Below are positions 6,540 through 54,415 of a stretch of 62,627 nucleotides of DNA, piece by piece; the first letter of the stretch is position 1; each line of letters begins with the position of its first letter. Source of the DNA: a virus (lineage: Duplodnaviria; Caudoviricetes); IMG/VR virus record IMGVR_UViG_3300030620_000006, positions 1-62,627 of that record; one strand, given 5' to 3'. Position numbers and translations under genes: made by a program. The notes under the pieces are model-generated. The model did not search any database, was not told the DNA's origin, and saw nothing but the letters and a program-made list of their open reading frames with translations.

Positions 6540-8159
6540 TCACGCCGACCTCCCAACTTGCTCGATTGATTGGACTTCCTCGAAGGAGACGACCCGCCCG
6601 CCCCGCACCACCTGCACCGCGACCAGGCTCCGGTCACAATCCGAGCAGGTTGTGTCCAGACCCGGGCCACGGCGCAGTGATAGGTGCACATCGTCCACCC
6701 GCCACTTCGGAGACGACTTGAACCTGCCGAGCTTGCCCTTCGGCTGCTTGCCGGTCGCCGCGATCGTGACGTCCACACGCTCGACAAGCGATCTCAGAAT
6801 CCGCCGCCTCGCCGCCGCTCTGACAGGCTCTTCCAGGGCTGCTGCCGCCGCGTCGAGCGCCCGGTCCAGAGCCCCGCTGCGCGCCGCCTCCATCCGCCGG
6901 CGGGCCGAGCGGATCGTCTCCTCGAGGCGCTTGACCTGCCGGGCGGCTACGGCCCGCTGCTCCGCGAACTCGTCGCGGTCGATCTCGCCGTCCGCCCTCA
7001 TCGCGACCAGGCGGGCGAGCCGGGCGACCAGCTTGCCGCGCCGCCGCTCCATCGCCTCGATCTCGGCCGCCGGGTCGACCGCCGCGCCGGCGCGAGAACG
7101 CTCGACCAACTTCCGCACCGCGTCCGGGTGGCGCAGCAGCTCGGCGAAGCCCCGCCAGGTCAGATCGTCCACGGCCTGCCGCCGCACCCAGGCGCCGCCG
7201 CCGTCCCGGGGCCGGTAGTAGGAGCCGCCGTGGCTGCGGTCGATCACGACCCGCCGGCCGTCGACCCAGAGCAGGCCGGTCAGCATGCCCGGTAGGCCGG
7301 TCGAGGTGCCGCCGCGGTGGGCGCTGGCAGACTCCCAGGTCGCTGCGTCGATCAGAGGCTCGTGCGCTCCCTCGACCACGATGGCGTCCGGGTGGCTGGG
7401 ATCGAAGTGGAAGGCGCCGCGGTCGCCGTCTCGCCGCCACGCGCCGTTGATGATCGTGCCGAGGTAGACGGGGTTCCCGAGCACGCGCACCACCGCCGTC
7501 TTGCACCACCTACCGCCGCGAGAGGAGGGGATGCCCTCGGCATTCAGGCGCTCCGCGATGGCGCGCTGGCCGACGCCGGAGGCCGCCCACCGGAAGATGC
7601 GGCGCACGACGGCCGCCTCCTCGTCCACCACCTGCAACGTGCCGCGGAGCGGGTCGCCCGCCGGCGGGTTGTGGTAGCCGTAGGGCGCGGCGCCCCCAGT
7701 GACCTTGCCCTGACGCGCCTTCTCTCGCTTGCCCCTCTTGACCCGCTCCTTGAACCTCCGCACCTCGGCCGCGTCGACCAGTGAGACGATGCCGAAGGCG
7801 AGCCCGTCGGAGGCGTCGCCAAGGTCCCGTCGCGTGTTGTCCACCCACACCGCGATCTCCCGCTCGCGCAGCTCCCGCATGAGGAGCGCGACTTCCAGCT
7901 CGTCACCGCGGGTCAGACGGGATTGCTCGATACACCAGACGGCGTTCGCCCCGCCGGTGCGGATCGCGTCGAGCACCTGCTGCAGCACGTGGCGCTCACT
8001 GGCTGCGGCAGTGGCGGACTCAGTGCCCCTGAACTCGGCGACCGTCTGCCAGCCGTGCTGACCGGCCAGCTCGTGGTAGCGGCGGCGCTGGGCGTCGAGC
8101 GAGGCGCCGCGCTCCTCTTGGCGGTCGGTCGAGACGCGGTAGAGGGCGACTACTCGCAC
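6540..8159 (-). CDS. Large serine recombinase (integrase)
   Basis: YRVSTDRQ catalytic Ser, SRLTR, APYGY, NPVYLG, HEPLID and a coiled-coil C-terminus; GTG start at 8159 after GGAG. Confidence 0.92.
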   Translation of the reverse strand: MRVVALYRVSTDRQEERGASLDAQRRRYHELAGQHGWQTVAEFRGTESATAAASERHVLQQVLDAIRTGGANAVWCIEQSRLTRGDELEVALLMRELREREIAVWVDNTRRDLGDASDGLAFGIVSLVDAAEVRRFKERVKRGKREKARQGKVTGGAAPYGYHNPPAGDPLRGTLQVVDEEAAVVRRIFRWAASGVGQRAIAERLNAEGIPSSRGGRWCKTAVVRVLGNPVYLGTIINGAWRRDGDRGAFHFDPSHPDAIVVEGAHEPLIDAATWESASAHRGGTSTGLPGMLTGLLWVDGRRVVIDRSHGGSYYRPRDGGGAWVRRQAVDDLTWRGFAELLRHPDAVRKLVERSRAGAAVDPAAEIEAMERRRGKLVARLARLVAMRADGEIDRDEFAEQRAVAARQVKRLEETIRSARRRMEAARSGALDRALDAAAAALEEPVRAAARRRILRSLVERVDVTIAATGKQPKGKLGRFKSSPKWRVDDVHLSLRRGPGLDTTCSDCDRSLVAVQVVRGGRVVSFEEVQSIEQVGRSA

Positions 8160-8551
8160 TCGGGATCTCCGAGGAATGGGTAGGCGGCGAGCACGGACTC
8201 TGCGGCTCGCTGGGATGCGAGCGCGCGCAGCTTCCACCCGGTTTCGATGTCGGCGCGGCGGTCGTAGAGGTCCTCGGCGTCGGAGTCTACCGGTGACGTC
8301 GCCGCCGCCACCAGCTCCTTGAGCGGGCCGAGGTCTGGCGGCGGGGCGGCGAGGGCTTGCGCCGCCACTGCACGCGACTTGCGCGCCTCAGTGTGCACCC
8401 GGTGCGGCTCGCGGTCGACGACGCACTCGATAAACCAGAGCGCGCCTTTCGCCGCCGCCAGCGCCGCCCGCAGCCGCCCGACCTCCAGCGCGGCCAGCAG
8501 TTCGGTGCCCTCGGTCACCGCCTCACGCTCGATCTCTCGGGACGTTCTCAT
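8150..8551 (-). CDS. Hypothetical protein, paralog of 58048-58416
   Basis: Shares AALEVxRLRAAL, LxPLKELVAAA and VLAAYPxLG. Confidence 0.7.
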   Translation of the reverse strand: MRTSREIEREAVTEGTELLAALEVGRLRAALAAAKGALWFIECVVDREPHRVHTEARKSRAVAAQALAAPPPDLGPLKELVAAATSPVDSDAEDLYDRRADIETGWKLRALASQRAAESVLAAYPFLGDPECE

Positions 8552-10644: not shown

Positions 10645-11991
10645 TCAGTGCGCGTCACGGCGGTGCTCCCTTGATCGAAACGACATGGTCTCTCCGTTCC
10701 ACCAGGTCTCCACGATTCCAGTCGCCCCGCCACGGTTCTTTGCCACGATCAGTTCAGCATCCTCGGCCGGGGTTTCTGGGTGGTAGACGTGGTCCCGGTA
10801 CACGAAGATCACGGCGTCAGCGTCCTGCTCGACTGCCCCGGAGTCGCGGAGGTCGGAAAGCATGGGTCGCTTGTCCGGGCGCTTCTCACAGTCGCGGTTT
10901 AGCTGATGCAATGCAACGACCGTGATTCCGAGCGACTTCGCCAGCGCCTTGAGCCCGCGGGTGTTCTCCGCGATCGCGGTGTTTTCTTTCTCGTGTCTGC
11001 CGTCCGCCCTCAGCAATCCGAGGTGGTCGACCCATAGAACGCGCAGCCCCCCGGTCGTCACCTTGGCGCGGGCCGCCATCGCGAGCTGGCCAAGTCGGAG
11101 CGTCGCTCGGTCGTCGAGCGCAACGTCCGCCGTCCGAGCGATCTCCCGCGCCGCATCCTTCATCCGCTCGCGCTGCGCGCTGCTCGTGTAGCCGTCCCTC
11201 ATGCGGTGGATCTCGATCCCGGTTCGCCGTACCAGTGACCGTGTCGCGTACTCCTCGGCCGACATTTCCAACGAGAAGATCAGCGAGCGGTGCCCGTGGG
11301 TTTCCTGATGCTCGGCGATCTGCTGCGCGATCGACGACTTGCCCATGCCGGGCCGTCCGGCAATCACGATCAGTCGGCCGGGCTCGAATCCTCCGAGACG
11401 GTGATCGAGTTCGGGAAATCCGGTCGACGCCCCGCGCACTTCGCCCGGCGAGAGCGTCGAATACTCGGCCGCGGTCTGGATCGCCACCTCGCCGAGGCTT
11501 TGCGGCCCGGTCGCGATCTCGGACTCCGCGACCAGGCTGATGAGTCTGCCCTGGTGCTCGGCGATCAGGTCCTCGGCCTTCGACGATCCGGAGAGTGCGG
11601 CGCGCACCAGTCGCCCGCAGAGGTCGATCAGTTCGCGGCGCAGGCGAAGCTCCTCGAGGATCTGGACGTACTGCGCCGCTGCGCCGATGTCTGGCAGGTC
11701 GTTGTCGAGCGCGTAGAGGTAGGCGACTCCGCCGGCGTCGTCGAGGGTGTGCTCCGCCTCGAGCTTGGCCTGGATGGTCCGCGCGTCGAGCGGCATCCCC
11801 TCGGCGCGCAGTTCGGCGATGGCGGCGAAGATGAGCCGATGCTTCTCGCGGTGGAAAAGCTCCATCCGCAGCGACAGGGCGTCGAGGTTTTCCGGGGCGA
11901 GCATGATCGACGCGAGTACGGCACGCTCGACCTCCTCGCTCTCGGGCAGCGTCTCAACCTCCCGGATCTTGCGCACCGCGGCGACCGTCAC
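10645..11991 (-). CDS. dnaB: Replicative DNA helicase, DnaB family
   Basis: IAGRPGMGKS, FSLEMS, VDHLGL, QLNR, LSDLRDSGAVEQDAD and AKNRGG. Confidence 0.97.
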   Translation of the reverse strand: MTVAAVRKIREVETLPESEEVERAVLASIMLAPENLDALSLRMELFHREKHRLIFAAIAELRAEGMPLDARTIQAKLEAEHTLDDAGGVAYLYALDNDLPDIGAAAQYVQILEELRLRRELIDLCGRLVRAALSGSSKAEDLIAEHQGRLISLVAESEIATGPQSLGEVAIQTAAEYSTLSPGEVRGASTGFPELDHRLGGFEPGRLIVIAGRPGMGKSSIAQQIAEHQETHGHRSLIFSLEMSAEEYATRSLVRRTGIEIHRMRDGYTSSAQRERMKDAAREIARTADVALDDRATLRLGQLAMAARAKVTTGGLRVLWVDHLGLLRADGRHEKENTAIAENTRGLKALAKSLGITVVALHQLNRDCEKRPDKRPMLSDLRDSGAVEQDADAVIFVYRDHVYHPETPAEDAELIVAKNRGGATGIVETWWNGETMSFRSREHRRDAH

Positions 11992-25801: not shown

Positions 25802-26326
25802 ATGGCTCGCTCGCCCGCAAAGCCCCGACCGGACGCTGCCCCGAAGCGGTCTCCCCGGAAGGCTGGTAAGGGCAAGCCAGACGCCGCACCAACCACCCCG
25901 AAGCGCCGCCCCGTCGGCCGCCCCGCCTCGATCACCCCGCAGCTCGCCGAGGTCATCCTGGATCGCCTCGCCTGCCAGTCTGTCGAGCAGGTGTTCACCG
26001 ACCCGAAGATGCCGGACCGGGCGACCTTCTACAACCACTGCAAGCACTCGCCGGAGTTCTTCGACGCCTCCGCGCGTGCGCGAGCCCTCCGTGCGCTGGT
26101 CGAGCTGGACGAAGCCGAGCGCTCCCTGGCCGACGCCAAGCCCTCGGACATCCCGGTCGTTCGGGAGCGGATGCAGCATGCCCGGTGGAAGGTCAGCCGG
26201 ATGCTGGCCAAGTACTACGGCGAGCGGCTTGCGCTCTCTGCCCCGGACGGCGGCCCCATCCCCGTCGAAATCACCTCCGCCGATGAGGCCCGCGAAGCGC
26301 TGCGCAAGGCCGGGGTCGACTCGTAA
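25802..26326 (+). CDS. terS: Terminase small subunit
   Basis: GRPA...VILDRLA...MPDRATFYNH...ARAR...RWKVSRM..KYYGER; directly upstream of terL. Confidence 0.85.
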   Translation: MARSPAKPRPDAAPKRSPRKAGKGKPDAAPTTPKRRPVGRPASITPQLAEVILDRLACQSVEQVFTDPKMPDRATFYNHCKHSPEFFDASARARALRALVELDEAERSLADAKPSDIPVVRERMQHARWKVSRMLAKYYGERLALSAPDGGPIPVEITSADEAREALRKAGVDS

Positions 26327-26345: not shown

Positions 26346-27941
26346 GTGAACGACCCCGCCGCCGAGATCCTCCGTCGCGGCCAGCGCCTCACCCGCCTCG
26401 CCAACCACAGCGGAAAGCCCCGCCCCACGGCTGAGCGCGCCGCCAACTTCGCCGCCGAGCGCTCGCTCTGCCACGCTGACATCCATCACTGGCTCGACGA
26501 GTGGGGGTGGATCCAGGACCCCAAGGCGCAAGACTCCGCCGAGCGGGTGATTCCCTTCCGCGCGTGGCCCCGGCAGGTCGAGTACGTCGACTGGCTGCTC
26601 GATGGCGCCGAGCGGGGGGCGCCGCGGGTGCTCAACAAGAGTCGGGAGGTGGGGGCGACGTGGGTTGCGCTGATGGTCCTCTACTGGCTGTGGCTGACGT
26701 CGGACCACTTCTATGCCCACCTCGCCAGCCGCAAGGAGCCGGCGGTCGACGACCTCGGGCCGAAGAGCCTGTTCGGCAAGTTGGCCTTCATCGCCCGGAC
26801 CCAGCCGAGCTTCCTCCGCCCTGCGAAGTTCAGCCTCGATAAGAACAGGAAGAAGCTCCACCTCGAGAACCCTGCCAACGGGTCGCTGATCACTGGCGAG
26901 GGGCTTTCCCACGGCTTCAGCCGCGGCGACCGCGTCGGCGTCCTGCTCACCGATGAATGGGCGCACGTCCCGCACCATCTCCAGCAGCAGATCCGCCTCG
27001 GCATCGAGAGCGTGGCGCGCAGCTGGTGGGCGATCTCGACACCCAACGGGCGCGGCGATGACTTCCACAGCCGGTGGAGGCTGGCGGCCGAAGCCGACCG
27101 CTTCGAGATCGGCTGGGAGGACGACCCCCGCAAGAGCCGGGGCTGGTACGACGCCCTGCTGGTCTCGGCCGGCGGGCAGCTCACCGAAGACGAGCGCGCG
27201 CAAGAGCACGGGCGCAGCTTTGTCGGCGTCAGCGGCGAGCGGGTGTGGCGGGCCGCGCGGGCGGCGGTGACGTACCGCGAGCGTCCCCCGCACTTCGACC
27301 ACCTGCCGATCCTTGGTGCCATGGACTTCGGCAGCGGCCCCTCGCTCACCGTACTCGCCCTCGCCCGTATCGAGTGGGCGGAGGGCTCACCGATCATCTG
27401 GCTCGAGCGGGTGCGGACCTGGCAGCGGTGGGCGGCTGCGGAGGTGGGGGCCGAGATCGTTGCCATGCTCCCGCCGGGCACCATGGCGCACATCGTCGGC
27501 GACCCGTCGGGTATCGCCGCCGACAGCTCGCAGTCAAGCTGGGAGAAGGGGCTGCGCGGGGCCGGCGTTCCGTTCCGCTGCCTGCCCGCTGACTACAACA
27601 CCCGCACCGGGATCGACGACTCGCTACGCGACGTGCAGCGCCAGCTCGACGGCGGGGGGCTGCGCATCCACGCCGAGGATGCATCGCTTGCGCTCGACAC
27701 GATCGAGAGTTGGCAGTACGACATCCCCGAGGGCATGCCGCTCGACCTGGTCAACCGCAAGGAGATCTCTCCGCGCAAAGATGCATGGTCGCACGTCGGC
27801 GACGCGCTGAGGTATCTGGTATCATGCGTCCTGCGTCAGGGACTCCCGAGCGAGGACAGCGAGGTGGAGGCGGGGTTCGAGGCGGCGCCGATGACGGAGG
27901 TGGGAGCAATCTTGGACATGTACCGGCGGGCGGGTCTGTGA
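26346..27941 (+). CDS. terL: Terminase large subunit
   Basis: KSREVGATW Walker A, LTDEWA, ISTPNG, AMDFG and SHVGDALRY. Confidence 0.92.
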   Translation: MNDPAAEILRRGQRLTRLANHSGKPRPTAERAANFAAERSLCHADIHHWLDEWGWIQDPKAQDSAERVIPFRAWPRQVEYVDWLLDGAERGAPRVLNKSREVGATWVALMVLYWLWLTSDHFYAHLASRKEPAVDDLGPKSLFGKLAFIARTQPSFLRPAKFSLDKNRKKLHLENPANGSLITGEGLSHGFSRGDRVGVLLTDEWAHVPHHLQQQIRLGIESVARSWWAISTPNGRGDDFHSRWRLAAEADRFEIGWEDDPRKSRGWYDALLVSAGGQLTEDERAQEHGRSFVGVSGERVWRAARAAVTYRERPPHFDHLPILGAMDFGSGPSLTVLALARIEWAEGSPIIWLERVRTWQRWAAAEVGAEIVAMLPPGTMAHIVGDPSGIAADSSQSSWEKGLRGAGVPFRCLPADYNTRTGIDDSLRDVQRQLDGGGLRIHAEDASLALDTIESWQYDIPEGMPLDLVNRKEISPRKDAWSHVGDALRYLVSCVLRQGLPSEDSEVEAGFEAAPMTEVGAILDMYRRAGL

Positions 27942-28123
27942 GCGAGCGGGGCACGCTGGTTTGCCCGCGGTGCGGGGCTGTCGAGAGCTTCGCCGAGGAT
28001 CGGTTCTACTGGGCGCACTGCCCGCGGTGCGGAGCTGACCTGCCGAAACAGACTGCGCGCGACCTCGGCCCCTCCGCCCGCTCCGATGATCCCCTGAGGG
28101 CTGAGCCGAGCAAGGAGGCGTGA
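27938..28123 (+). CDS. Small zinc-ribbon protein
   Basis: Two CPRCGA motifs; GTGA coupling. Confidence 0.5.
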   Translation: MSERGTLVCPRCGAVESFAEDRFYWAHCPRCGADLPKQTARDLGPSARSDDPLRAEPSKEA

Positions 28124-28218
28124 TGTCCATGATGGTTCTCCCCCTCCCGATACCCGAGATGCCGCTGCCCAAAGATCCTCCCAAAGAGCCGCCGCCGCGT
28201 TGGCCGAAAGACTAGCCC

Positions 28219-30021
28219 ATGCCTGTCCCCGCCACCCTCTCCAAGCGCATCGGGCCGGTTGACCCTTCGCCGATTACCTCCGCCGGCGCTCCCGGCGTCT
28301 ACGTCCATCCCCGCATCGACGAGGTGTTGCTCTACCTCACCAACTACGGCGACGAGCGCGAGTACGAGGCCATGATGCGCCTCGATACCGCGATCTCTGG
28401 CGCCGCGCAGCAGCGCATCAGCGGTGTGGTCGAAGCGGGGTCGGAGGTGCTGCCGGGCAAGAGCGGCAAGCGGGCAGCGCGTCTGCTGCGAGACTTCGCC
28501 ATCAGCTATCTCAAGCGCATTCCGGCGCTCGGCACGCTGGCCGAGGAGATGCAGGCGGCGATCTACTACGGCTGGCGGCCGGTCGAGCTGCAGTGGGGCG
28601 AGATTCGCCACAAGTCCCGCCCCTACGTCGGCGTGGTGCGTGCTGTCGCCCGCAACCCCTGGGACTACGAGGTGACGATCGACGGTCAGGTGGTGCGCAT
28701 GGGCTGGGGGCGGGAGGGTGGGCTTCAGCCACCGGGGCGGTTCCTGGTCTGCACCTCGGGCTCGACCGGCAACCCCTACGGCAACGCCTGGCTGCGGCGG
28801 GTGTGGGCGCTCTACCACCTGAGCAGTAACTTCGACAAGCTGGCGGCCGTCAGCTTCAGCCGCGCGCTCGGCCTGCTCAAGGCGGTGATCCCGACGGGCA
28901 AGGACGCCGGCGCCATCGCCACCGGGCTGGCTCAGGTGCGCGACCGGATCAACTCCTACAACATCATCGTCGAGCCTGAGGGGTGGGCGCTGGAGTTCGA
29001 GCAGTTCGGCAAGATGCCTGAGAACCTGGAGGCCTTGCTGCGCTTCTTGGACGAACGCAAGCGCATCGCCCTGGTCGGCCAGAACCTGAGCACGGAGGTG
29101 CGGGGCGGCAGCTTCGCTGCGGCCCGCGCCCACATGGACGTGCTCAACACCTACCAGCGGGCGGATGCCCGGCGGCTCGGCCAGTGGATGAACGACGGCC
29201 TGATCGCGATGGGGGTCGGCGCCAACTACGGCGAGGTGGACCCGGACGATGCGCCGCGCTGGCAGAGCCGCCTGCTCAGCCGCCCCGACGCCGAGGATGT
29301 CAAGCTGTTCTTCGATCTGGGCGGGCCGATCGACGGCAACAGGTTGGCCGAGACGCTGAACGTCCCGGCGGCGCTGCCGGAGGATGGCGAGCCGGTGGTG
29401 CTGCAGAAGGTGGCCAGTCCGCCGGCGGCGCCGAAGCCGAGCGACGTGCCGGCGCGGGCGGCTACCCGCGCCCTCACGTTCGATTTGCTCGACGCCGCAA
29501 TGGTACCCGCCGAGCTGCGCGAGCTCGATCAGTGGGTGTGCTGGCGGTATGAGGACCGCGGCGCGCAGAGGCCGGCGAAGATCCACTATGCAGCCAGGGG
29601 CGGAGCCGCATCTGCCTCTGACCCGGCGACCTGGGCCAGCCTTGCCGCTGCCCGGGCGGGGGTTGTGTCCGGTGGCTTCGACGGTGTCGCCTTCGCCCTC
29701 TCCGACGGCGATCCCTACTGCGGCGTCGATCTCGACGACTGCCTCGATGAGTCCGACGCCTTCACCTCCGCCCGTGCCGAGGACATCGTCCGCCGCCTCG
29801 CCACCTACACCGAGATCAGCCCGTCGGGCCGCGGAGTCAAGGCGTGGTGCCGGGCTGAGCTACCGCCTGGTCGCCGACGCACCGACGGGGTGGAGATGTA
29901 CGACCAGCGACGCTTCTTCACCGTCACAGGCCGGCGGCTGGCTGGTGCACCTTCGACGATCCGCGACTGCCAGGCTGAGGTCGAGGCGGTCCACGCCGAG
30001 GTCTTCGGCGGACTTGGCTGA
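28219..30021 (+). CDS. Portal protein (DUF935/Mu gp29-like) fused to a C-terminal NrS-1-like prim-pol domain
   Basis: AIYYGWRPVELQW, NPYGNAWLR and ALVGQNLSTE portal motifs, then QWVCWR, DPATW, GVDLDDC, YTEISPSGRG and EMYDQRRFFTVTG in frame. Confidence 0.85.
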   Translation: MPVPATLSKRIGPVDPSPITSAGAPGVYVHPRIDEVLLYLTNYGDEREYEAMMRLDTAISGAAQQRISGVVEAGSEVLPGKSGKRAARLLRDFAISYLKRIPALGTLAEEMQAAIYYGWRPVELQWGEIRHKSRPYVGVVRAVARNPWDYEVTIDGQVVRMGWGREGGLQPPGRFLVCTSGSTGNPYGNAWLRRVWALYHLSSNFDKLAAVSFSRALGLLKAVIPTGKDAGAIATGLAQVRDRINSYNIIVEPEGWALEFEQFGKMPENLEALLRFLDERKRIALVGQNLSTEVRGGSFAAARAHMDVLNTYQRADARRLGQWMNDGLIAMGVGANYGEVDPDDAPRWQSRLLSRPDAEDVKLFFDLGGPIDGNRLAETLNVPAALPEDGEPVVLQKVASPPAAPKPSDVPARAATRALTFDLLDAAMVPAELRELDQWVCWRYEDRGAQRPAKIHYAARGGAASASDPATWASLAAARAGVVSGGFDGVAFALSDGDPYCGVDLDDCLDESDAFTSARAEDIVRRLATYTEISPSGRGVKAWCRAELPPGRRRTDGVEMYDQRRFFTVTGRRLAGAPSTIRDCQAEVEAVHAEVFGGLG

Positions 30022-30743
30022 TGCGCCTCGCCGCGGTCGTCTTCGCCAACTCCAACGGCCGCAGCGACTACCCCCGCCTCGCCCGCGCGCTCGAGCGGTC
30101 GGTTGCCGCCAACTCGCCGCGCACCCCGATCACGATTCACCGCCCGCGCGCCCAGCACGCCCGCCTCGAGGCGCTGCACGGCGACCCGCGCGATGGCCGG
30201 CGCAAGGGGCTGATCGACAACACGCAGAAGATGGTCGCCTGGAACGCCGTCATCCAATCGGCCCGCCCCGGCGAGGTAGTCGGCCTGCTCGACTGCGACA
30301 CGCTGGTGCTCGGCGACCTGCGCGCCGTGCTCGACCTCGACTTCCGGGTGACCTACACGGTGCGCCCGCCGCACGCGCGCTTCCCCTTCAACAGCGGGGT
30401 CGTCTTCGCCCGCATCGGCAAGGCGGTCAAGCGCTTCTTCGCCGAGTGGGAGGCCAAGAACCTGAGCCTGCTCGCCGACCGCGACGCCCACCGCCCATTC
30501 CGCTACAGGTACGGCGGCATCAACCAGGCGGCGCTGGGTGCGATGATCGAGGCGCGCCCCGACCTCGTGACGCCGATACCGTGCGAGGTGTGGAACTGCG
30601 AAGATTCGAGCTGGCCGGCGTTTGGGTCGGCGACGAAGGTGCTGCACATCAAAGGCCGGCTGCGGGAGGCGTGCCTGGGGCGGCGCGAGCCGATGGAGGA
30701 GATCAGGGCGATGGTCGAGACCTGGAGGCTCTATGGACGATAA
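30021..30743 (+). CDS. GT-A fold glycosyltransferase
   Basis: LLDCDTLV DxD motif, FNSGVVF, NQAAL, WN and LHIKG. Confidence 0.8.
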   Translation: MRLAAVVFANSNGRSDYPRLARALERSVAANSPRTPITIHRPRAQHARLEALHGDPRDGRRKGLIDNTQKMVAWNAVIQSARPGEVVGLLDCDTLVLGDLRAVLDLDFRVTYTVRPPHARFPFNSGVVFARIGKAVKRFFAEWEAKNLSLLADRDAHRPFRYRYGGINQAALGAMIEARPDLVTPIPCEVWNCEDSSWPAFGSATKVLHIKGRLREACLGRREPMEEIRAMVETWRLYGR

Positions 30744-31299
30744 GCGCAAGCGCTGGGATGCTGTCCTCGACCGCATCCCCACCGACCGGCCGACCGTCGG
30801 CGTCGAGGTAGGGGTGTGGCGCGGCATCCTCAGCCGGGTACTGCTCGCCGAGCGGCCGGCGCTTACGCTCTACTTGGTTGATCCGTGGCGGGCCGGCGAG
30901 CCCGGTACGCCGTGGTATGAGTCCGGCTCGGTCTGCCCGATGCGCAATCAGCGGCAGTTTGACGAGGCCTACAAGCGCACGCTGCGGGTGACCAAGCCGT
31001 TCGCCGATCGTCGGCGCATCCGCCGGGCACCGTCGGTCGAGGTGGCGGGGGCGGTCATGCGGAACTCTGATCCGGGGGCGGCTCGCTTCGACTTCGTCTT
31101 CATCGACGGCGACCACGGCTTCGACGGGTGCCGAGCGGACATCCTCGCCTGGCAGGGCTTGGTCCGCCCCGGCGGGTGGATCGGCGGCCACGACTGGGAG
31201 AAGCCGGAGCGGGGGCGGGTGACTGAGGCGGTGCTGTCGGTCTACCCGCGCGAGCAGGTGGAACTGGACGCCGAGTCAACCTGGTTCGTGCGAGCCTAG
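30733..31299 (+). CDS. Class I SAM methyltransferase (Methyltransf_24-like)
   Basis: GVEVGVWRG, LYLVDPW, FDFVFIDGDH and VRPGGWIGGHD. Confidence 0.88.
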   Translation: MDDKRKRWDAVLDRIPTDRPTVGVEVGVWRGILSRVLLAERPALTLYLVDPWRAGEPGTPWYESGSVCPMRNQRQFDEAYKRTLRVTKPFADRRRIRRAPSVEVAGAVMRNSDPGAARFDFVFIDGDHGFDGCRADILAWQGLVRPGGWIGGHDWEKPERGRVTEAVLSVYPREQVELDAESTWFVRA

Positions 31300-31484
31300 T
31301 CGCCCTCGTCTCCGCCCTGGCTCTCGCCTTCGAGCCTGGCTACCTCGCTGATCGGTACGCGCCAGGGTCCATGTTCCCGCACCTTCACTCCTCTGACTGT
31401 TCCTTCTCGGAGTCCGCGGCGCAGCGTATCGGCGTGCACTCCGATCTTAGCGGCAGCCTCTTTCACGGCCAGCGTCTTACTCAT
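31296..31484 (-). CDS. Excisionase-like HTH_17 protein
   Basis: LAVKEAAAKIGVHADTLRRGLREG...WRVPISEV. Confidence 0.8.
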   Translation of the reverse strand: MSKTLAVKEAAAKIGVHADTLRRGLREGTVRGVKVREHGPWRVPISEVARLEGESQGGDEGD

Positions 31485-31566
31485 AGGTCAGCGAGTTTAG
31501 CGCTGTTTCAGCGCGCCTGACGCATCACAAGGGATTTATGTTCATTGGGCGTGCTATGTCTAGCCC

Positions 31567-32955
31567 GTGCTGAAGCCCGTCCAGGTTCCCGCCACCGCCG
31601 ACCGCTACGGCTGGGAACGACTCCGCGCCTACCTCGTGGCGCGCGAGATGGAGACCCAGGGTGTCCCGCCGCACCTCGCCGCCGAGCAGGCCGACGCCCA
31701 GCTCGACAACGCGTGGCGGGTGAAGTTCCCAGGCGAGGACTTCCCGCTCGACCTCATGGCGCCGACCGCCTCGGCCGAGGGCCTCCCCGGTGGGATCAAA
31801 GCCGGCGAGGCGCTGACGTGGGCGATCGTCGCAGCGCCCACGCCCGACGGCGAGTACCTGACCGCCGCCGTAATCGCCGAGCTGGTGTCTACCTACGACC
31901 CCGACTTCCGGCGCGCCCCCATCGTGTTGCCGAACGGGTCGGGGCCGGTGCACACCGTCGGTCGCTGGGCGCCGTTTGTGCCGGGGTCGGTGCGCGCACT
32001 TGCGCACGACGGCCACCACCTGTGGGCGCTGATCGAGGACCACGGCATGGTCGGCTTCTCGGTTGACTTCGCCGGCATCCGCGAGCGGTCGATCGCATGG
32101 CGCAACCCCCTTCGCGACCTCGACCCGCCGGCTGCGTACCTCGAGCACGTCGCCCTGGTCTCGGCCGAGATGCCGGGTGTCCCCAACATGCCCAGCCTCG
32201 ACCAGTACTTCCTCGGCGAGCGTGACGGCGACGCGAAGTCGCTGACCATGACCGCCACACTCAAGGACTTCCCGACCCGGGAGGAAACTCAGATGGCAGA
32301 GAAGGACAAGGCCGCCGTGGCCGCCGACCCGAAGGACGGGGAGGAAGCCGAGGTGGACACCACCGATCTGGGGCTCGACGTTGCGGCTCTTGCCGCCGCG
32401 CTGGCGCCGGAGGTGGCGAAGCTGCTGACCGCCAAGCCCGAGCCGAAGGCAGCCGAGCCGTCGGACTACGCCGCCGCGCTCACCGCGGCCGTGGCCCCGC
32501 TCGCCGCCAAGGTCGAGGCACTGACCGGCGAGATCACCACCATGAAGACCGCCTCGGCGACCTCGGCCGCCGAGACCCGCAAGCAGCGCGTCGCCGACGT
32601 GCTCGACCGCGCCGTCAGCGAGGGTCGGCTCACCGCGGCCCATCGCGAGCTGGAAGAGACCGCGCTGACCGACGCCCGCTACACCGACGCAGAGGTGACC
32701 GAGCGGCTGGCGAAGGTCTCCGCCCTCCCCGTCACCATGAGCTCGCAGCTCACCGCGGCGATCGAGTATGTCGATGGCGACAAGCGGATGACCGTGCCGC
32801 CCCACCTGCTGCCGCCTCCGAGGTACAGCGCGGACGGCGCGGACCTCGAGCGGACTGCCCGGGCGCTCTCTCGGGTGCCCGACACGATCACCGACCCGGC
32901 TCAGCGGTACGAGGCCAAGCGGGCCTCAATCTACCGCGAGTTTGGGTCCAACTAG
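31567..32955 (+). CDS. Mu-like prohead protease/scaffold
   Basis: YDPDFRRAPIV, RERSI and YLEHVALVSAEMPGVPNM, then an Ala-rich helical scaffold; positioned before the capsid gene. Confidence 0.8.
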   Translation: MLKPVQVPATADRYGWERLRAYLVAREMETQGVPPHLAAEQADAQLDNAWRVKFPGEDFPLDLMAPTASAEGLPGGIKAGEALTWAIVAAPTPDGEYLTAAVIAELVSTYDPDFRRAPIVLPNGSGPVHTVGRWAPFVPGSVRALAHDGHHLWALIEDHGMVGFSVDFAGIRERSIAWRNPLRDLDPPAAYLEHVALVSAEMPGVPNMPSLDQYFLGERDGDAKSLTMTATLKDFPTREETQMAEKDKAAVAADPKDGEEAEVDTTDLGLDVAALAAALAPEVAKLLTAKPEPKAAEPSDYAAALTAAVAPLAAKVEALTGEITTMKTASATSAAETRKQRVADVLDRAVSEGRLTAAHRELEETALTDARYTDAEVTERLAKVSALPVTMSSQLTAAIEYVDGDKRMTVPPHLLPPPRYSADGADLERTARALSRVPDTITDPAQRYEAKRASIYREFGSN

Positions 32956-32967
32956 GAGGTCGCGGCG

Positions 32968-33363
32968 ATGGCCCAGCAACTCGGCTCCATCTACGAAGAG
33001 GGTCCCTACGGCGTCATCGCCTCGGGCGCCCTCCGCGACGGCCGCGCCGTCAAGCGCACCACCGCGCTCAATACCGTCGAGGAATGCGACGCGGCGGGCG
33101 AGCGCTCCGACGGCATCATGATCGGCGACACGGCCACCACGCTCAGCGGGTCCATGCTCAAGCGCGGCCGCTACGAGCGCGCCGTGGCCGGGGCGGCGAT
33201 CGCCACCCTGCACAACTCCCTCGCCGTGGATAGCGCGGGGCGCTACGTCATCGCGATCGAAGCGGACGTGATCGTCGGGAAGAACCTGACGCTCGCCGCC
33301 GGCGCCGACTCGCTCTTCACCATCGAACTCGACGACGCCGAGCGCGTCGCGCCCAGCACCTAG
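32968..33363 (+). CDS. Capsid decoration/cement protein
   Basis: Size, AGAAIA...LAVDSAGR motif and position between protease and capsid. Confidence 0.7.
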   Translation: MAQQLGSIYEEGPYGVIASGALRDGRAVKRTTALNTVEECDAAGERSDGIMIGDTATTLSGSMLKRGRYERAVAGAAIATLHNSLAVDSAGRYVIAIEADVIVGKNLTLAAGADSLFTIELDDAERVAPST

Positions 33364-33372
33364 GAGGGAGCC

Positions 33373-34437
33373 ATGAATCCCCGAGTGATGAACCTGCCCT
33401 CCGGTCGCGGCCTCCTGGTCGAGACCAAGGAACTGGCACTGCCGGCGGGCGACACCATCGCCAACTTCCAGTTCGGCATCGACGTGCCGGTGACGGAACT
33501 GATCGTCGGCCAGCCGCGGTTGGCCTCTCCCCTGGGGGCCGAGCTGTTCCGACCCGTCGGAGCACGGACGATCAGTTTCAAGTACCCGAAGTTCGGGCTC
33601 GAGCGCTTCGGCGTCAAGGACGCCAAGCGGCCGATGCGCTCGAAGTTCCAGGCGAGCGAGCTGCGCGCCGACGATGGCACCGGGAAGCTGGAGCGGTACG
33701 GCTGGACGGCGCTGCTCGACCGCGACGAACTGGACAACGCCGACGCTGCCGACTCCGCGCTGTCGCTCAACCTTCGCATCCGCGAGAAGCACCAGCGTCT
33801 CGCCCGCGACCTCGTCGACCTGTCCGTCGAGGCCGACCGTGCCACGGTGGCCCTCGCCGCGGGGTCCTACAGTCAGTCGAGCCCCGACCTCGACGTGACG
33901 ATCTCCGGCGGGTCGGAGTGGAACCACTCGACCGGCGGCGACAGCTTCGCATCGCTCTGGGCGGTGGCGGAGCTGCTGGCCGGGACCAACGGTGTCTCGG
34001 TCGCCGACCTCGACGTCTACCTGACGCACGTCAGCCTCAGGGCCGCGTTCCAGGATCCGGTGTTCCGCACCGCTCGCAACGTCGGCGGGGCGACCGAGGT
34101 GCCGTCGGTCGACGAGCTGCGACGCTACTGGGGCGTCCGGCGCGTGATCGTCGGCGACGGCTACAAGCAGGACTCCGCCGGCACCGGGATCGAGAGCCTC
34201 TACGGTGACGTGGCGATCATCCGCGTCTCGACCGCGCTCACCGGCTACGACCTCGACGCCGGCAACCTCGACAGCTTCTGCCGCTTCTACTGGCAGCAGT
34301 TCGGACCGGAAGGGCGAGCCATGCAGAACATCTGGATCGCGGAGCGGACCTCGTGGGCTTTCCCCTGGGAGCACTGGGAGCAGCCCCTGACCGTCAACAC
34401 CAAGGCCGCGGCGATCATCCGCAACACCCACACCTAG
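33373..34437 (+). CDS. Major capsid protein
   Basis: 354 aa; AELFRPV...YPKFG pattern, C-terminal AAAIIRN, and synteny. Confidence 0.8.
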   Translation: MNPRVMNLPSGRGLLVETKELALPAGDTIANFQFGIDVPVTELIVGQPRLASPLGAELFRPVGARTISFKYPKFGLERFGVKDAKRPMRSKFQASELRADDGTGKLERYGWTALLDRDELDNADAADSALSLNLRIREKHQRLARDLVDLSVEADRATVALAAGSYSQSSPDLDVTISGGSEWNHSTGGDSFASLWAVAELLAGTNGVSVADLDVYLTHVSLRAAFQDPVFRTARNVGGATEVPSVDELRRYWGVRRVIVGDGYKQDSAGTGIESLYGDVAIIRVSTALTGYDLDAGNLDSFCRFYWQQFGPEGRAMQNIWIAERTSWAFPWEHWEQPLTVNTKAAAIIRNTHT

Positions 34438-34446
34438 GGAGGAGCC

Positions 34447-34680
34447 GTGGCGAGTCTACTGACCATCACCAAGAAGGACGGCCGTTCGACCGTCACGCTG
34501 GAGAAGATGGGCGAGCCCGCAGTCGAGTTCGGGGCGGTCGCCCCCCCGGAAGACGATCTCGACGACCTCGACGAGGCGGCGCTCCGGGACCGCTACTTCG
34601 AGGTCCTCGGAGCCAAGGCGGGCAACCGCTCGACCGACACGATGCGCAAGGAAATCCGAGCCGTCGTTATCGAGGCCTAG
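34447..34680 (+). CDS. Small head-region protein
   Basis: GGAGG RBS; helix-extension-helix-like C-terminus. Confidence 0.6.
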   Translation: MASLLTITKKDGRSTVTLEKMGEPAVEFGAVAPPEDDLDDLDEAALRDRYFEVLGAKAGNRSTDTMRKEIRAVVIEA

Positions 34681-34683
34681 CCC

Positions 34684-35118
34684 GTGGCCGCCTACTCCAA
34701 CACCACCGACGCGATCCTCCGCTTCGCCGGCAACGACGAAGCGGAGGCGCTGTCGGCGTTGTCGGCGGGGGCGCACGACATCGACGCCGCGCTTCGGTCC
34801 GGCGGCTACTCGGCACCGGTCGACACGTCGGCCTTGACGAGCGAGGACGGGGTGCGGCTGGTGGCGAAGCTGCGGGACATCAACCTCGCCCTTGCAGCCG
34901 GCATCCTCTCCCGCGGACAGGGCACCCGCCGTGGCACTCCCGACAAGGTGAGGAAGGACTACAAGGATGCCCGCGACTGGCTCGACCGCGTGCGCGAGGG
35001 CAAGGAGCTGCTGACCGCCATGGTGCCCGTCAGCGGGTCGAGCGTGCTCGCCATCGCCGGCGACCACGAGTGGGGGCATACCGCCGACTACCTCGACCTC
35101 GCCACGGTGGTCGACTGA
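34684..35118 (+). CDS. Head-tail adaptor (Mu gp36/DUF1320-like)
   Basis: IDAALRSGGYSAPV...VRKDYKDARDWLDRVREGK. Confidence 0.8.
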   Translation: MAAYSNTTDAILRFAGNDEAEALSALSAGAHDIDAALRSGGYSAPVDTSALTSEDGVRLVAKLRDINLALAAGILSRGQGTRRGTPDKVRKDYKDARDWLDRVREGKELLTAMVPVSGSSVLAIAGDHEWGHTADYLDLATVVD

Positions 35119-37788: not shown

Positions 37789-37804
37789 CTAGGGGTTGTC
37801 GCCG

Positions 37805-40800
37805 ATGGCGGCCGGCGACGACATTGCCCTCCGGATCCTCGCCGATGTTTCCGACGCCCGTCGGAACATCGAGTTCCTGCGCGTCGCGTTCCTCAACGCT
37901 GTGCGCCTCATGGAGGAGGCGGCGCGGCGACCGGACTTCGACCCAGCGAGCGAAGAGGCGCGCCGGCTTGCGCAGACGGTCCAAGCGCTAGGCGTCGAGT
38001 TCAAGAAGGCTTTCGATGTTGCCCAGAAGGAGACGCTGGGGACCGGCAAGGCTCTCCAGTCGGCGCGAGCCGAAGTAACCCGCGTCGACCAGGCGCTCGA
38101 GAAGCTCAACAAGACCGGCGGCGGTCTCCGCGGGCTGACCGGCCCCCTCCGCCAAATCCGCAACGGCCTCGTTTCCATTGGGGCGGCACTCGGCGTCGCC
38201 TTCGGTGGCCGCCAGATCATCGAGTTCATCAAGTCGTCGATCCAGGCCCGCGTCGAACTCCAGGCCCTCCGTGCCCAGCTTGATGGCGCCGCCGGCTCGA
38301 CCGAGGCCGGGGGAAGGGCGTACGACTTCGCGCGTCGCAAGGCGCTGGAGCTTGGGTTCGCGATTCAGGATGTTGTCGGGTCGCAAGCGCGCTTCGAGGC
38401 GGCGACCCGTCAAACGAATCTGACGCTCACTCAGCGGCGCGAGATCTTCGAGTCGGTGATCGACGCCGGCCGCGTCCTCCAGCTCAGCCAACAGCGGGTC
38501 AACAACGCCTTCCTCGCCCTGGAGCAGATTGCCTCCAAGGGTCGGGTTTCGATGGAGGAGCTGCGCCGTCAGCTCGGCGACCAGATCCCCGGCGCCCTCC
38601 CCATCCTCGCCAAGCAGTTGGGTATCACCACCGGCGAGCTGATCAAGATGGTCGAGGCCGGCCAGCTCATGGCCGACGAAGCCCTGCCGGCGCTGGCGAA
38701 GGGTCTACGCGAGACGTTTGGCCCCGGGCTCGCGAAGGCGATCGAGACCGATGCCGCCGCCCTGGGTCGTCTGCAAGTCGCCGCCTTCGAGGCCAGGGCC
38801 GCGTTCGCTGAGGGATTCGGCGAGCAGTTCCGCGGCGCAATCGACACGCTGACCACCTTCATTAACGAGAACAGGGAGAGCTGGGAGAGCCTCGGCGAAG
38901 GCATCGGGTCCATTTCGCAGATCGTCAGCGACGTGACCTCCGCGTTCTCTCCCCTGGGTGCCGTACTCGACGGGCTCGGGGTTGAGACCGCGACCGTTGC
39001 CGATGGCTTGGAGCTGCTGGCCAAGGGGGTCAAGGCAATCACCTCGCCGATCAAACTCGCCACGCAGGCGGCGAACGATCAGGCCCGGGCCATGGGCTTG
39101 CTCCCCGAGAAGGCGCGCTCCATCGAGGATTCGCTCAAGGACATGCGGCCCGCCGTCGAGCTGATCACCGCCAAGCAGCGCGAGCAGGCCGAGCAGGAGA
39201 AGGTCAACGCCGAGATCGCGGCGCGCCGAGTGCGTCAGATCTACGGGAAACAGATCCCGGCGCTGGTCGAGCTGGCTAAGGCCGAGGTCGATACGGCGGA
39301 AGTGATCAGGAAGGCGAAGGAGGGGGATGAGGATGCGAAGAGGGCTTTAGAAGAGATCATCAAAAAGTACATGGAGAGGACGGTGGCGGGCAGGGCTGCG
39401 GCCAAGGCTTTGTCTGAGGAAGGGATCGCTGCCGGAGAGGTGAAAACCGCTCACGAGCAGGTGACAGAGGCCCTGGGAAGGTCGGCAAAGGCGCAAGAGG
39501 AGTTCAATCAGAAGCTTTTCGAGGCGCGTGGAAACCTATTCAAGAGCCGGGAGGAATTGGACAAGCTGGCCGGCCAGATCATCACCGCGATCGACGCTCT
39601 GGCGCGCTTCGGCGGGGCGAATGTCGAGCAGACCGACAAGGCGTTGGACTTCGCGCTGAAGGTTGCGGCCGGCTACCGTGAAATGGGCGAGGCGCTACCC
39701 GACGACCTGGTCGAGCGCATCGACCGGCTGGCGGAGTCGAGCGTGAGCGGCGCCGAGAAGGTCGTCAAGGCGCTGAAGGAGGAGGCGCAAGCCTACGCCG
39801 CCCTGGGTGAGGCGATTCCGCAAGATCTGATCGACCGCATCGCCCACCTGGAAGAGGTCACCAACGATCACACCCGCGCGATGGCGCTGTCCGTCATCGG
39901 CATGGGGGAGTACCGCAAGGAGCTTCTCGGCTCGCGGGAAGAAGCCGAGGTCGCCGCGGCCCAGCTCGCCAAGCTCGTCGAAGGCTTCGGGTTGCTCGGG
40001 CCGGTGACCCAGGAACAGGCCGAGGTCATCAAATCCGAGGTTCAGGATCTGCTAGACGCCTTCGCCGAGATCGGCGAGCAGCCCCCCGCCCACCTCCAGC
40101 TCCTCGCCGACGCCATGGGGGTCACGACCACCCGCATTGCCGAGGAGGTCGAGAAGCAGCAGAAGCTCCTCGGCGATCTGCTCAAGGCGTACGAAGCGAT
40201 CAAGACGGCCGCCCCCGGCGGCGAGGCGGCGAAAGATCTGGCCACCCAGCGCAAGGAGCTGGAAGCTCTCCGCGCCAAGCAAGACGAGCAGGGCACGCTC
40301 ACGCTCGAGGAGGTCGAGCGGATCGGCCAATTGGAGGCGTCGGTCGACCGCCTTTCCCACGAGGTCGAGGGGCTGGGCACCGCCTACGACCAGATGGGCG
40401 ACCAGGCGGTGGCCTCGGCCGACCAGGTCAAGGCCGCCATCAACGGCCTGATCCGCGGCAACGCCGAGGCGTTCGCCACCCTGCCGCTGGCGACTCAGGA
40501 GGCGGTCGACCTGATCCTCGACGGCCTGCGGCGCTCGGCTGAGGAGGGGACGGCGACCGAGGAGGTGATCACCGACGCTTTCCTCAAGATCTCCGACCGC
40601 ATGGAGGAGGGCGGGGTGGACGTCGGCGCGTTCCAAGAGCAGCTCGGTCTGGCTGGCGATGAGGCCCTGACCGTCGCCGATGCCGTGGACGCGCTGGGCC
40701 GGGGGACCGAGGGGGCAGCGTCGGCCATGGGCGACCTCGGCGACGCCACGGAAAAGGCCAAGGACAAGCAGGAGGAGCAGATCGAGGCGGTCGAGAAGCT

Positions 40801-40945
40801 CAAGGCAGCGCACGAGGACCTGGGCAAGACGATGGAGTCCACCTATGCCGCCATGAAGCAGCACCTACGGGAGGCCGTTGCCTTGCAGGCGCAGCTTGTG
40901 ACTGGTTGCGCCGACCTCAAGGCCTGCATGGCGGGAACGGAGTAG
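37805..40945 (+). CDS. Tape measure protein
   Basis: ALEQIASKGRVSMEELRRQLGDQIPGA tape-measure domain; ~1046 aa helical protein. Confidence 0.93.
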   Translation: MAAGDDIALRILADVSDARRNIEFLRVAFLNAVRLMEEAARRPDFDPASEEARRLAQTVQALGVEFKKAFDVAQKETLGTGKALQSARAEVTRVDQALEKLNKTGGGLRGLTGPLRQIRNGLVSIGAALGVAFGGRQIIEFIKSSIQARVELQALRAQLDGAAGSTEAGGRAYDFARRKALELGFAIQDVVGSQARFEAATRQTNLTLTQRREIFESVIDAGRVLQLSQQRVNNAFLALEQIASKGRVSMEELRRQLGDQIPGALPILAKQLGITTGELIKMVEAGQLMADEALPALAKGLRETFGPGLAKAIETDAAALGRLQVAAFEARAAFAEGFGEQFRGAIDTLTTFINENRESWESLGEGIGSISQIVSDVTSAFSPLGAVLDGLGVETATVADGLELLAKGVKAITSPIKLATQAANDQARAMGLLPEKARSIEDSLKDMRPAVELITAKQREQAEQEKVNAEIAARRVRQIYGKQIPALVELAKAEVDTAEVIRKAKEGDEDAKRALEEIIKKYMERTVAGRAAAKALSEEGIAAGEVKTAHEQVTEALGRSAKAQEEFNQKLFEARGNLFKSREELDKLAGQIITAIDALARFGGANVEQTDKALDFALKVAAGYREMGEALPDDLVERIDRLAESSVSGAEKVVKALKEEAQAYAALGEAIPQDLIDRIAHLEEVTNDHTRAMALSVIGMGEYRKELLGSREEAEVAAAQLAKLVEGFGLLGPVTQEQAEVIKSEVQDLLDAFAEIGEQPPAHLQLLADAMGVTTTRIAEEVEKQQKLLGDLLKAYEAIKTAAPGGEAAKDLATQRKELEALRAKQDEQGTLTLEEVERIGQLEASVDRLSHEVEGLGTAYDQMGDQAVASADQVKAAINGLIRGNAEAFATLPLATQEAVDLILDGLRRSAEEGTATEEVITDAFLKISDRMEEGGVDVGAFQEQLGLAGDEALTVADAVDALGRGTEGAASAMGDLGDATEKAKDKQEEQIEAVEKLKAAHEDLGKTMESTYAAMKQHLREAVALQAQLVTGCADLKACMAGTE

Positions 40946-53621: not shown

Positions 53622-53819
53622 ATGACAGCGGCCCGCGAGCACGAAGCGTCCATCCACTTCCGCCTCCCGGTCGACCTGGCGGGCGCTCTGCGTCAGCGGG
53701 CCGAGGACAACGGGCGCACCCTGAGCGGTGAGTTGCGCTGGCTCGTCCGGGGGGCAATCGAGCGCAGCGAGCCCGGTGGACGGCACTGCCGGGCCGCTGC
53801 GGGGAGGGCGAAGCGATGA
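53622..53819 (+). CDS. Arc-like ribbon-helix-helix regulator
   Basis: IHFRLPVDLAGALRQRAEDNGRTLSGELRWLV. Confidence 0.8.
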   Translation: MTAAREHEASIHFRLPVDLAGALRQRAEDNGRTLSGELRWLVRGAIERSEPGGRHCRAAAGRAKR

Positions 53820-54415
53820 GCAAGCCCGACCACCCCACCCCCTTCGCCTACCAGGCCGCCGCCTGGCTGCTGATGTGCGAGCCCGCGGCGATCCGTGCGG
53901 TCGCCGAGGTCGAGGCCGGTCCGCATGGCGCCTTCCTCGACTCGGGCGAGCCGACCATCCTGTTCGAGCGCCACGTCTTCCATGGGCTGACCCGCGGCCG
54001 CTTCGCGGGTGCTCGGGTGCCCGGCGCTCCGGCGTCCTGGTCGCTGATCTCGATCCCGATCCCGGGAGGCTACGGGCCGACCTCTGCGCAGCATCGGCGT
54101 CTCCAGGCGGCGGTAGCGCTCGACCGAGACGCGGCGCTGCGCTCCGCCTCGTGGGGGCTGTACCAGCAGCTCGGCCGCGATCAGCAGTACTCACCGAGCC
54201 TCCAGCGCTTCATCACCGCGATGTACCGCGGGGTGGACGACCACCTGCGAGCGTTCGTCATGTTCATCCGGGCGAACGAGCGGCTGGTCGACGCGCTGCG
54301 GGGGCTCGACTGGCCGACCTTCGCGCGCTGGTACAACGGCCCCAGTCACGCTCGACACGACTACGCGGGGCGGATGGCTGCGGCGTACGAGCGGGCGCTA
54401 GGAGTGGAGCCATGA
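53816..54415 (+). CDS. Endolysin, N-acetylmuramidase (DUF3380-type)
   Basis: AVAEVEA, PTILFERHVF, SASWGLYQ and FARWYNGP. Confidence 0.92.
   Translation: MSKPDHPTPFAYQAAAWLLMCEPAAIRAVAEVEAGPHGAFLDSGEPTILFERHVFHGLTRGRFAGARVPGAPASWSLISIPIPGGYGPTSAQHRRLQAAVALDRDAALRSASWGLYQQLGRDQQYSPSLQRFITAMYRGVDDHLRAFVMFIRANERLVDALRGLDWPTFARWYNGPSHARHDYAGRMAAAYERALGVEP

Follow-up and report, generated by a model that had tools for sequence, protein, structure and literature searches.

The window analysed here is the whole IMG/VR virus record IMGVR_UViG_3300030620_000006 (62,627 bp, linear, estimated to be 78% complete, 69.5% G+C). It carries a gene in which a complete portal module of the Mu gp29 type continues in frame into an archaeo-eukaryotic primase (AEP) catalytic domain resembling that of the NrS-1 primase-polymerase (Prim/Pol). 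This portal–AEP open reading frame (ORF) is one real gene, belonging to a temperate tailed phage, and sits in the head module of the genome. On sequence comparison, the AEP part appears to be a whole domain captured in frame, a recent and dispensable accessory that does not belong to the portal machine. The fusion extends the known theme of portal- and MuF-borne effectors as a shallow event in a single lineage, with a putative function.

The portal–AEP gene

The ORF 28219..30021 (+ strand) consists of 600 codons and a stop codon in one frame, and neither the ORF listing nor the translation shows an internal stop. Its 600-aa product is called P0001 below. An in-frame fusion had been proposed in a first-pass annotation of this DNA; the uninterrupted frame bears out that proposal, and all of the motifs quoted there are present where they had been placed. 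The G+C content at third codon positions (GC3) is 0.88 for the gene as a whole. Its features, all on the + strand, are the following.

28219..30021, +, portal–AEP fusion gene; single ORF with no internal stop, covered by X1 record 3 (see below)
28219..29373, +, complete portal module of Mu gp29 type (residues 1 to about 385); PF06074, portal alignment, AF2 model and Foldseek
29374..29499, +, Pro/Ala-rich linker (residues 386–427); low pLDDT, a variable region among portal relatives
29458..29460, +, junction codon 414; sister alleles end here (...PSDVPARS)
29500..30009, +, NrS-1-type AEP (Prim/Pol) catalytic domain (residues 428–597); PHROG, NrS-1 entries in PDB, AF2 and Foldseek
29500-29547, +, MVPAELRELDQWVCWR motif (residues 428–443); read in the translation
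residues 467–472, +, SDPATW; read in the translation
29728..29736, +, motif I, D504-L-D506 (metal-binding DxD); invariant in alignments A1 and A6
29818..29841, +, SPS loop, GxG and K541 (SPSGRGVK, residues 534–541); S, P, S, G and G invariant
29890..29931, +, motif III region VEMYD...RRFFTVTG (E559, Y561, R565; residues 558–562 and 564–571); E, Y, R and T invariant in A1
30018..30024, +, stop/start overlap (C TGA TG C) with the next gene; read in the sequence

Part of the region 27900-31600 is present in 18 public runs from 17 studies of soil and sediment. Contigs from four runs (X1, X3, X4 and X5) were placed on this region, X1 being possibly the source sample, and bridging of the junction was judged by a 31-letter rule. 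Record 3 of X1 spans 28225-30136 with one mismatch and bridges codon 414. In the independent run X5, record 28 spans 29009-29610 with no mismatches; about 450 nt of it lie before this codon, in the portal part, and about 150 nt after it, in the AEP part. The junction on which the fusion claim depends is bridged in two of the four runs, one of them independent of the presumed source. The contigs of X3 and X4 stop or start no more than 21 nt from the junction (records 12 and 15 of X3 have an end at 29478 and a start at 29464, respectively, and record 21 of X4 has its start at 29455), so that none of them bridges it under the rule; these breaks may mark a branch point between two alleles. The AEP segment itself is covered in all four runs, three of them other than X1.

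The 90% cluster of P0001 contains two further full-length 600-aa variants from other assemblies: P0002 (ENA), with the substitutions D513G and A514E, and P0226 (JGI), with A514E and D556E. Because of the bridging contigs and these independently assembled variants with substitutions of their own, an assembly artefact can in practice be dismissed. The breaks within 21 nt of the junction in X3 and X4 are what a repeat or a strain branch would produce, but a chimeric assembly or a sequencing error at this point is hardly credible when the error-free X5 record crosses it and X1 record 3 crosses the entire ORF.

Portal module and linker

The Pfam family Portal_Mu (PF06074) matches residues 49–379 of P0001 (E = 1.6e-32, 113.6 bits against a cut-off of 23.9), taking up profile positions 4–333 of 336, and the portal part aligns over its full length with thirteen portals of 450–550 aa at 36–43% identity. 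The full-length AF2 model has a mean pLDDT of 79.1 and is confident over residues 45 to 380 approximately; it has a portal fold (wing, stem, clip and crown). A Foldseek search with this model returned JBD30 gp32 (8rka; E = 6.8e-16, TMt 0.63) and Mu gp29 (9knu, TMt 0.63; 9khx). Taken as a whole, the model comprises two confident modules and a linker, and matches both portal and NrS-1 structures. The linker, of about 40 residues, is modelled with low confidence, pLDDT being below 50 at residues 386–388 and 397–419.

Eleven of the 13 portal relatives have a conserved helical C-terminal tail with the terminal sequence NPDPKA, which the other two lack. Since portal relatives carry another module at the position occupied here by the AEP domain, the portal tail appears to be a swappable module, a variable docking site. 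The portal relatives P0082–P0092 share the tail ...ELxxYY...FLxxNPDPKA after a variable linker, and P0078, P0087 and the lineage of the window are without it. The portal matches of P0119 and P0090, which seemed to extend into the AEP part, proved spurious, their tails being the usual helical portal tail. A six-frame search of the record found no MuF (PF04233), in agreement with the first-pass annotation.

The AEP domain

Residues 426 to 597 (approximately) match the first 180 or so profile positions of the PHROG primase families phrog_1829 (E = 1.1e-40) and phrog_13901 (E = 4.7e-38). With phmmer against PDB chains, the NrS-1 primase-polymerase (7rr3/6k9a/6a9w) is matched with E of about 3e-21. 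The domain modelled alone by AF2 has a pLDDT of 92.8, and Foldseek aligns this model with the NrS-1 N300 structures 6jon/6a9w (TMq 0.77–0.78, root mean square deviation 2.2 Å, about 31% identity). The NrS-1-like identity suggested earlier is thus borne out. All invariant columns of the family are retained: D504/D506, the SPS loop and GxG (534–539), E559, Y561, R565 and T570.

The lysine that follows SPSGxGx in P0001 (K541) had been regarded as an anomalous replacement of the usual histidine. This does not hold for the subfamily, in which lysine is the commonest residue at this position: among 147 motif-bearing homologues, K occurs in 72, H in 60, R in 13, and T and N in one each, and 58 of the 72 K-bearing proteins have at least 550 aa. 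The 15 nearest relatives have K (14) or R (1). Histidine after SPSGxGx therefore does not define this AEP subfamily.

No helix-bundle domain (HBD; PF22763) was found in the six-frame search of the 62.6-kb record, which is 78% complete, and P0001 has no Pfam or PHROG match to a C-terminal helicase/ATPase module, so the helicase part is missing after the AEP domain, as first described. The label 'primase-polymerase' goes too far, the HBD required for de novo priming being missing. In the NrS-1 and pRN1 enzymes, the HBD is needed for primer initiation and not for extension, and mutations inactivating it increase polymerase activity; both activities of NrS-1 depend critically on S108 in its SPS loop (PMC8718748). 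The isolated AEP domain PP-N190 of S-2L retains polymerase activity (PMC8065100). Because the domain required for priming in the NrS-1 and pRN1 enzymes is missing, a primase role is unlikely, and analogy with them points to a polymerase or DNA-end module as the more probable identity of the AEP domain of P0001.

Origin and age of the capture

The nearest AEP relatives are free-standing AEP + HBD proteins of about 290 aa, with 53–58% identity by BLASTP and 52–55% in alignment A6. Similarity to them starts a few codons past the junction; the relatives have about 10–12 residues before VPxELR, and the junction lies 15 residues before it. At the other end, similarity stops at ...AVHAEVF, four residues before the stop codon, where the linker to the HBD starts in the relatives. 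The captured piece thus seems to run, in frame, from about the start of the donor protein to its inter-domain linker. Natural AEP-only ORFs with the same end boundary occur on long contigs (e.g. P0252, P0286 and P0283). Two other architectures were seen: P0101 (610 aa) has tandem AEP domains (residues 23–194 and 216–420) ahead of one HBD, and P0140 (716 aa) has an N-terminal region of about 360 aa ahead of AEP + HBD.

The fusion is very rare. A phmmer search of 1.84 billion representatives gave 21,645 matches with E ≤ 0.001, and in the best 150 both parts are found together only in P0002, a member of the same cluster. P0002 is also the only one of 224 collected proteins matched by both halves of P0001 in BLASTP. 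In a word-indexed search, one of the 75 matches covers the whole query and the other 74 cover about 24–38% of it, in the AEP part. Of 50,697 phage records, 398 have a match and none covers at least 80% of P0001. Viral contigs contain two AEP loci at 37% identity when searched with P0001 and four distant portals (27–33%) when searched with the portal alignment A2, and genome contigs contain five AEP-only loci (36–45% identity), mostly from Planctomycetota; there is no fusion among them. The architecture is thus confined to one 90% cluster, whether it is looked for among 1.84 billion representatives, among 5.8 billion clusters or among 50,697 phage records.

Some members of this same cluster do without the AEP domain. 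The sister proteins P0227 and P0228 (414 aa) and the fragment P0230, encoded on contigs of 3310, 6558 and 1071 nt, respectively, are 97–99% identical to P0001 in the portal part, share G105S, T226P, E259N and V333I, and all end in ...PSDVPARS at residue 414, i.e. at the junction. From these three endings, a stop codon after S414 is inferred for the sister alleles. The DNA of the 414-aa allele had no match in the metagenome contigs with the P0228 peptide pattern or an exact 28-nt pattern, searches in which near-identical records were possibly left out.

The composition of the gene also changes at the junction. GC3 is 0.807 in the AEP segment and 0.918 in the portal codons (Fisher p = 1.8e-4); the nine neighbouring late genes have values of 0.87–0.94. 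In 40-codon windows (29458-30018), GC3 is 0.72–0.82 across the AEP part versus 0.85–0.97 in the portal codons. Overall G+C shows no step at the junction, where only GC3 does. Given the confinement of the fusion to its own cluster, the 97–99% identical sisters that end at the junction and the lower GC3, we infer a recent horizontal capture into a working portal.

Of flanking direct repeats that might account for the indel, only short pairs are present, and a 13-nt pair at 29459/30179 (12 of 13 positions identical), considered as its source, would not yield the ...ARS end and was judged to be due to chance. Six single-nucleotide polymorphisms (SNPs) were listed within codons 414–600, 60 further differences lying outside this list; all six are at third positions, five being synonymous and the sixth giving D556E. 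The amino-acid variants (513, 514 and 556) fall in variable alignment columns. This pattern fits purifying selection, on thin support.

Contigs with at least 90% identity to the AEP part from 29509 (X1, one record) or 29510 (X5, two records) onward have unrelated sequence upstream. They may represent other AEP genes sharing the ELRELDQWVCW stretch, or the context of the donor.

Possible roles of the fused domain

With slightly less than even confidence, we favour the reading that the portal C-terminus takes the AEP domain into the procapsid, that the domain may be clipped off as in Mu, and that its target is the incoming genome. Portals are dodecamers located at one capsid vertex. From portal topology, each subunit would carry one AEP domain into the procapsid, giving up to 12 per virion. 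The domain would then stay tethered at the crown, or a head protease would clip the linker, a candidate for this being the protease-like product of 31567..32955 (a weak assignment). At packaging or ejection it would come into contact with the ends of the phage DNA, and it could accompany this DNA into the cell. Without the HBD, the domain would be unable to start primers de novo and might instead work as a template-dependent polymerase, a terminal transferase or a DNA-end binder, the outcome being fill-in or protection of the incoming genome ends. The proposal that the portal is a carrier that loads a DNA polymerase core into the capsid, and that this core is released or exposed at ejection and, before any phage gene expression, fills in or protects the ends or carries out repair synthesis out of reach of host nucleases, seems rather unlikely.

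Several observations are in line with a head-carried AEP domain. The catalytic residues (DxD, SPSGxG and E/Y/R/T) are intact, both modules are complete and the capture is domain-exact. Portal crown and C-terminus face the head interior, and in T4, GFP fused to the portal C-terminus is located within the capsid (PMC3012670). The virion structure of Mu lacks the last 124 residues of gp29, a loss that its authors attribute to protease I (PMC11915804). Effector domains fused to portal and MuF proteins are a known phage theme (PMC5512222). Phages are also known to inject proteins alongside their DNA.

Other points weigh against it. The fusion is confined to one 90% cluster, with no deep conservation that would show selection, and sister phages do without the AEP domain. 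Divergence among the carriers is too shallow for the intact catalytic residues and the few SNPs to say much, and the direction of the indel (gain or loss) is indicated by GC3 alone. RNA runs account for 0 of the 18 runs listed. At most about half of the 12 positions of the T4 portal accommodated bulky fusions (PMC3012670), and a 12-fold load of 20 kDa could be costly unless clipped. The protease assignment for 31567..32955 is weak. With no HBD in the 62.6-kb record, priming is unlikely.

It is possible, if somewhat doubtful, that the AEP domain is a tolerated passenger: a recent illegitimate or modular recombination would have joined an AEP-coding fragment, in frame, to the extreme 3' end of the portal gene. 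The flexible C-terminal tail of the portal would tolerate the domain, which would have no role and would be lost or decay. Such an event is suggested by the restriction of the fusion to a single 90% cluster, by sister portals that are 97–99% identical and end at the junction, by a GC3 step of the kind expected from recent foreign origin, by the separation of the AEP domain from its usual partners, HBD and helicase, and by the variability of the portal tail in the family (helical NPDPKA tail in 11/13, none in 2/13). It fits less well with the ends of the captured piece, both of which fall on domain boundaries, and with the preservation of the frame and of the TGATG coupling, although only non-disruptive insertions would survive in any case. 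Also against it are the carriers in several soil and sediment runs (AEP covered in 4/4, three of them not the presumed source) and the confinement of the listed SNPs to third positions.

A non-catalytic use of the domain is improbable. It could extend the crown as a plug or DNA organiser, or act as a shield or decoy that alters host immune recognition of the portal; Avs-type defence proteins sense portals. The AEP domain sits where portal relatives bear another C-terminal module, AEP domains bind DNA and nucleotides (PMC8718748), and portal and MuF fusions have roles in conflicts (PMC5512222). Against this, there is no sign of a defence context and every catalytic residue is kept, though the acquisition is too recent for decay.

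More improbable still is the suggestion, also made in the first-pass annotation, that the AEP domain is translated (perhaps additionally) as a separate product from the ATG at 29500 (M428) and serves cytoplasmic replication beside the DnaB-like helicase of the phage. M428 lies just ahead of the first conserved AEP motif, the phage has a DnaB-type helicase (10645-11991) and no other primase according to the DnaG_N and HBD searches, and stand-alone AEP-only ORFs occur elsewhere. However, no Shine-Dalgarno pairing precedes 29500 (duplex energy 0 versus −8 to −11.5 kcal/mol for six late genes), although the portal start itself is also weak in this respect. The homology begins upstream of M428, the relatives having their 10–12 or so residues before VPxELR, and no promoter-like site was found in 27800-31700. 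An AEP domain without HBD could not prime for DnaB (PMC8718748).

Comparison with known systems

The NrS-1 primase-polymerase N300 (6A9W, 6JON and 7RR3) resembles P0001 in its catalytic fold, DxD, SPS loop with GxG and acidic motif III. It has a His after SPSGxGx where P0001, like most of the subfamily, has Lys, and it is not placed C-terminal to a portal. According to PMC7102993, the NrS-1 enzyme also has an HBD and a hexameric helicase-like C-terminal region, whereas the chain of P0001 ends after the Prim/Pol domain. The metagenomic AEP + HBD PrimPols of about 290 aa (P0231–P0247) share the Lys and align with P0001 from about the junction onward; they retain the HBD (PF22763) and are free-standing, none being joined to a portal.

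On the portal side, Mu gp29 and JBD30 gp32 (PF06074; 9KNU/9KHX and 8RKA) belong to the same family, with the same fold and head gene order and a Mu gp36-like adaptor downstream. The phage of P0001 differs in having no MuF, and its nearest portals are only 36–46% identical. To our knowledge, no Mu gp29/JBD30-type portal bears an enzyme domain on its tail. The tail of the Mu portal is reportedly removed during assembly (PMC11915804).

A conceptual parallel is provided by the polyvalent and effector fusions of Iyer, Burroughs, Anand, de Souza and Aravind (2017, PMC5512222), in which an enzymatic domain is carried on a head-internal anchor. P0001 likewise has a portal anchor and an AEP domain within the head gene block. 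Fusions of portals to 2H and PBECR domains are described in the same survey, in which polyvalent proteins have 2–15 effector domains and often a processing peptidase, whereas P0001 has one added domain and no peptidase. In the primases TraC1 (RP4) and Sog (ColIb/R64) and the virion RNA polymerase of N4, a polymerase is delivered with the DNA before gene expression (PMC5512222); these are full enzymes (Toprim primases or an RNA polymerase) whose transfer has been shown experimentally, whereas P0001 has a predicted AEP core without a priming module. The engineered T4 gp20-GFP, finally, places a domain of about 20–27 kDa on the portal C-terminus inside functional particles (PMC3012670). It is artificial and occupies up to about half of the 12 positions, whereas in the phage of P0001 every subunit would be loaded unless clipped.

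We found no description of a portal fused to a primase or PrimPol in the literature. In the available text of the main survey (PMC5512222), Primpol domains occur only in the conjugative-element type of polyvalent proteins, and an AEP-superfamily DNA polymerase does not appear among the head-anchored phage effectors reported so far in the sources available to us. If the portal is indeed a carrier that loads a polymerase core, the portal–AEP protein would be a phage counterpart of the conjugative-plasmid primases, and head-delivered phage proteins would gain their first PrimPol-type domain. Packaged and active, it would widen the repertoire of 'first-minute' functions brought by phages, and would offer a natural test of the cargo capacity of the portal crown and a natural blueprint for filling capsids with enzymes. 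Should the domain be no more than a passenger, the gene would be a clean snapshot of domain capture at the end of a structural gene, with the portal tail as an evolvable docking site. The presence/absence polymorphism among phages 97–99% identical in the portal provides a ready natural control.

Genome context

The fusion gene lies between the large terminase gene and the protease/scaffold/capsid genes, i.e. in the position of a portal gene. The main annotated genes of the record are the following, with the strand and the evidence where recorded.

2261-4489, −, SNF2-type helicase fused to an N6/N4 DNA methylase, 742 aa; phrog_16 E = 8e-60, PF01555 E = 3e-18
6540-8237, serine integrase
10645-11991, DnaB-type helicase
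25802-26326, Sf6-type small terminase (TerS)
26346-27941, large terminase (TerL)
30021-30743, +, 240-aa ORF with no Pfam or PHROG match; GC3 0.94, DCD motif
30622-31299, +, Methyltransf_24 S-adenosylmethionine (SAM) methyltransferase
31567..32955, +, putative head maturation protease/scaffold; phrog_976 E = 1.2e-7, PF10123 Mu-like_Pro below cut-off (14 bits, E = 3.6e-4)
32968-33363, scaffold
33373-34437, major capsid protein (MCP)
34684-35118, Mu gp36-like adaptor
37796-40945, tape measure
53816-54415, endolysin

The other arm also encodes RecT, a RecE/YqaJ-type exonuclease and a RusA-like resolvase. The six-frame search of the record found neither a second AEP copy nor a DnaG primase core (DnaG_N). 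The combination of SNF2 helicase and DNA methylase is characteristic of phage proteins of the anti-restriction or polyvalent kind.

The ORFs 30021-30743 and 30622-31299 are cargo-like and lie between the portal and the protease. The look-alikes of the former include clusters of nucleotide-diphospho-sugar transferases (PF03407 in 30% of one cluster), which is a lead only. The methyltransferase probably starts later than 30622, because the SNPs at 30623-30660 are synonymous in the frame of the 30021-30743 ORF upstream. The gap between terminase and portal contains a small ORF (27939-28100, + strand) with two CPRCG motifs, which looks like a zinc ribbon by eye.

In the region 27800-31700, no sigma-70-like promoter was found, and there is one terminator-like site versus 1.2 expected. 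The 10-mer CTAGCCC[A/G]TG lies on the start codons of the portal (28212-28221), protease/scaffold-like (31560-31569) and adaptor (34677-34686) genes, on the + strand; these three matches compare with 0.11 expected, and none of 100 shuffles reaches three. At the portal, the TAG of this word is the stop codon of a small upstream ORF (approximately 28124-28216), and the motif resembles a recurrent stop-CCC-start coupling junction for genes without a Shine-Dalgarno site.

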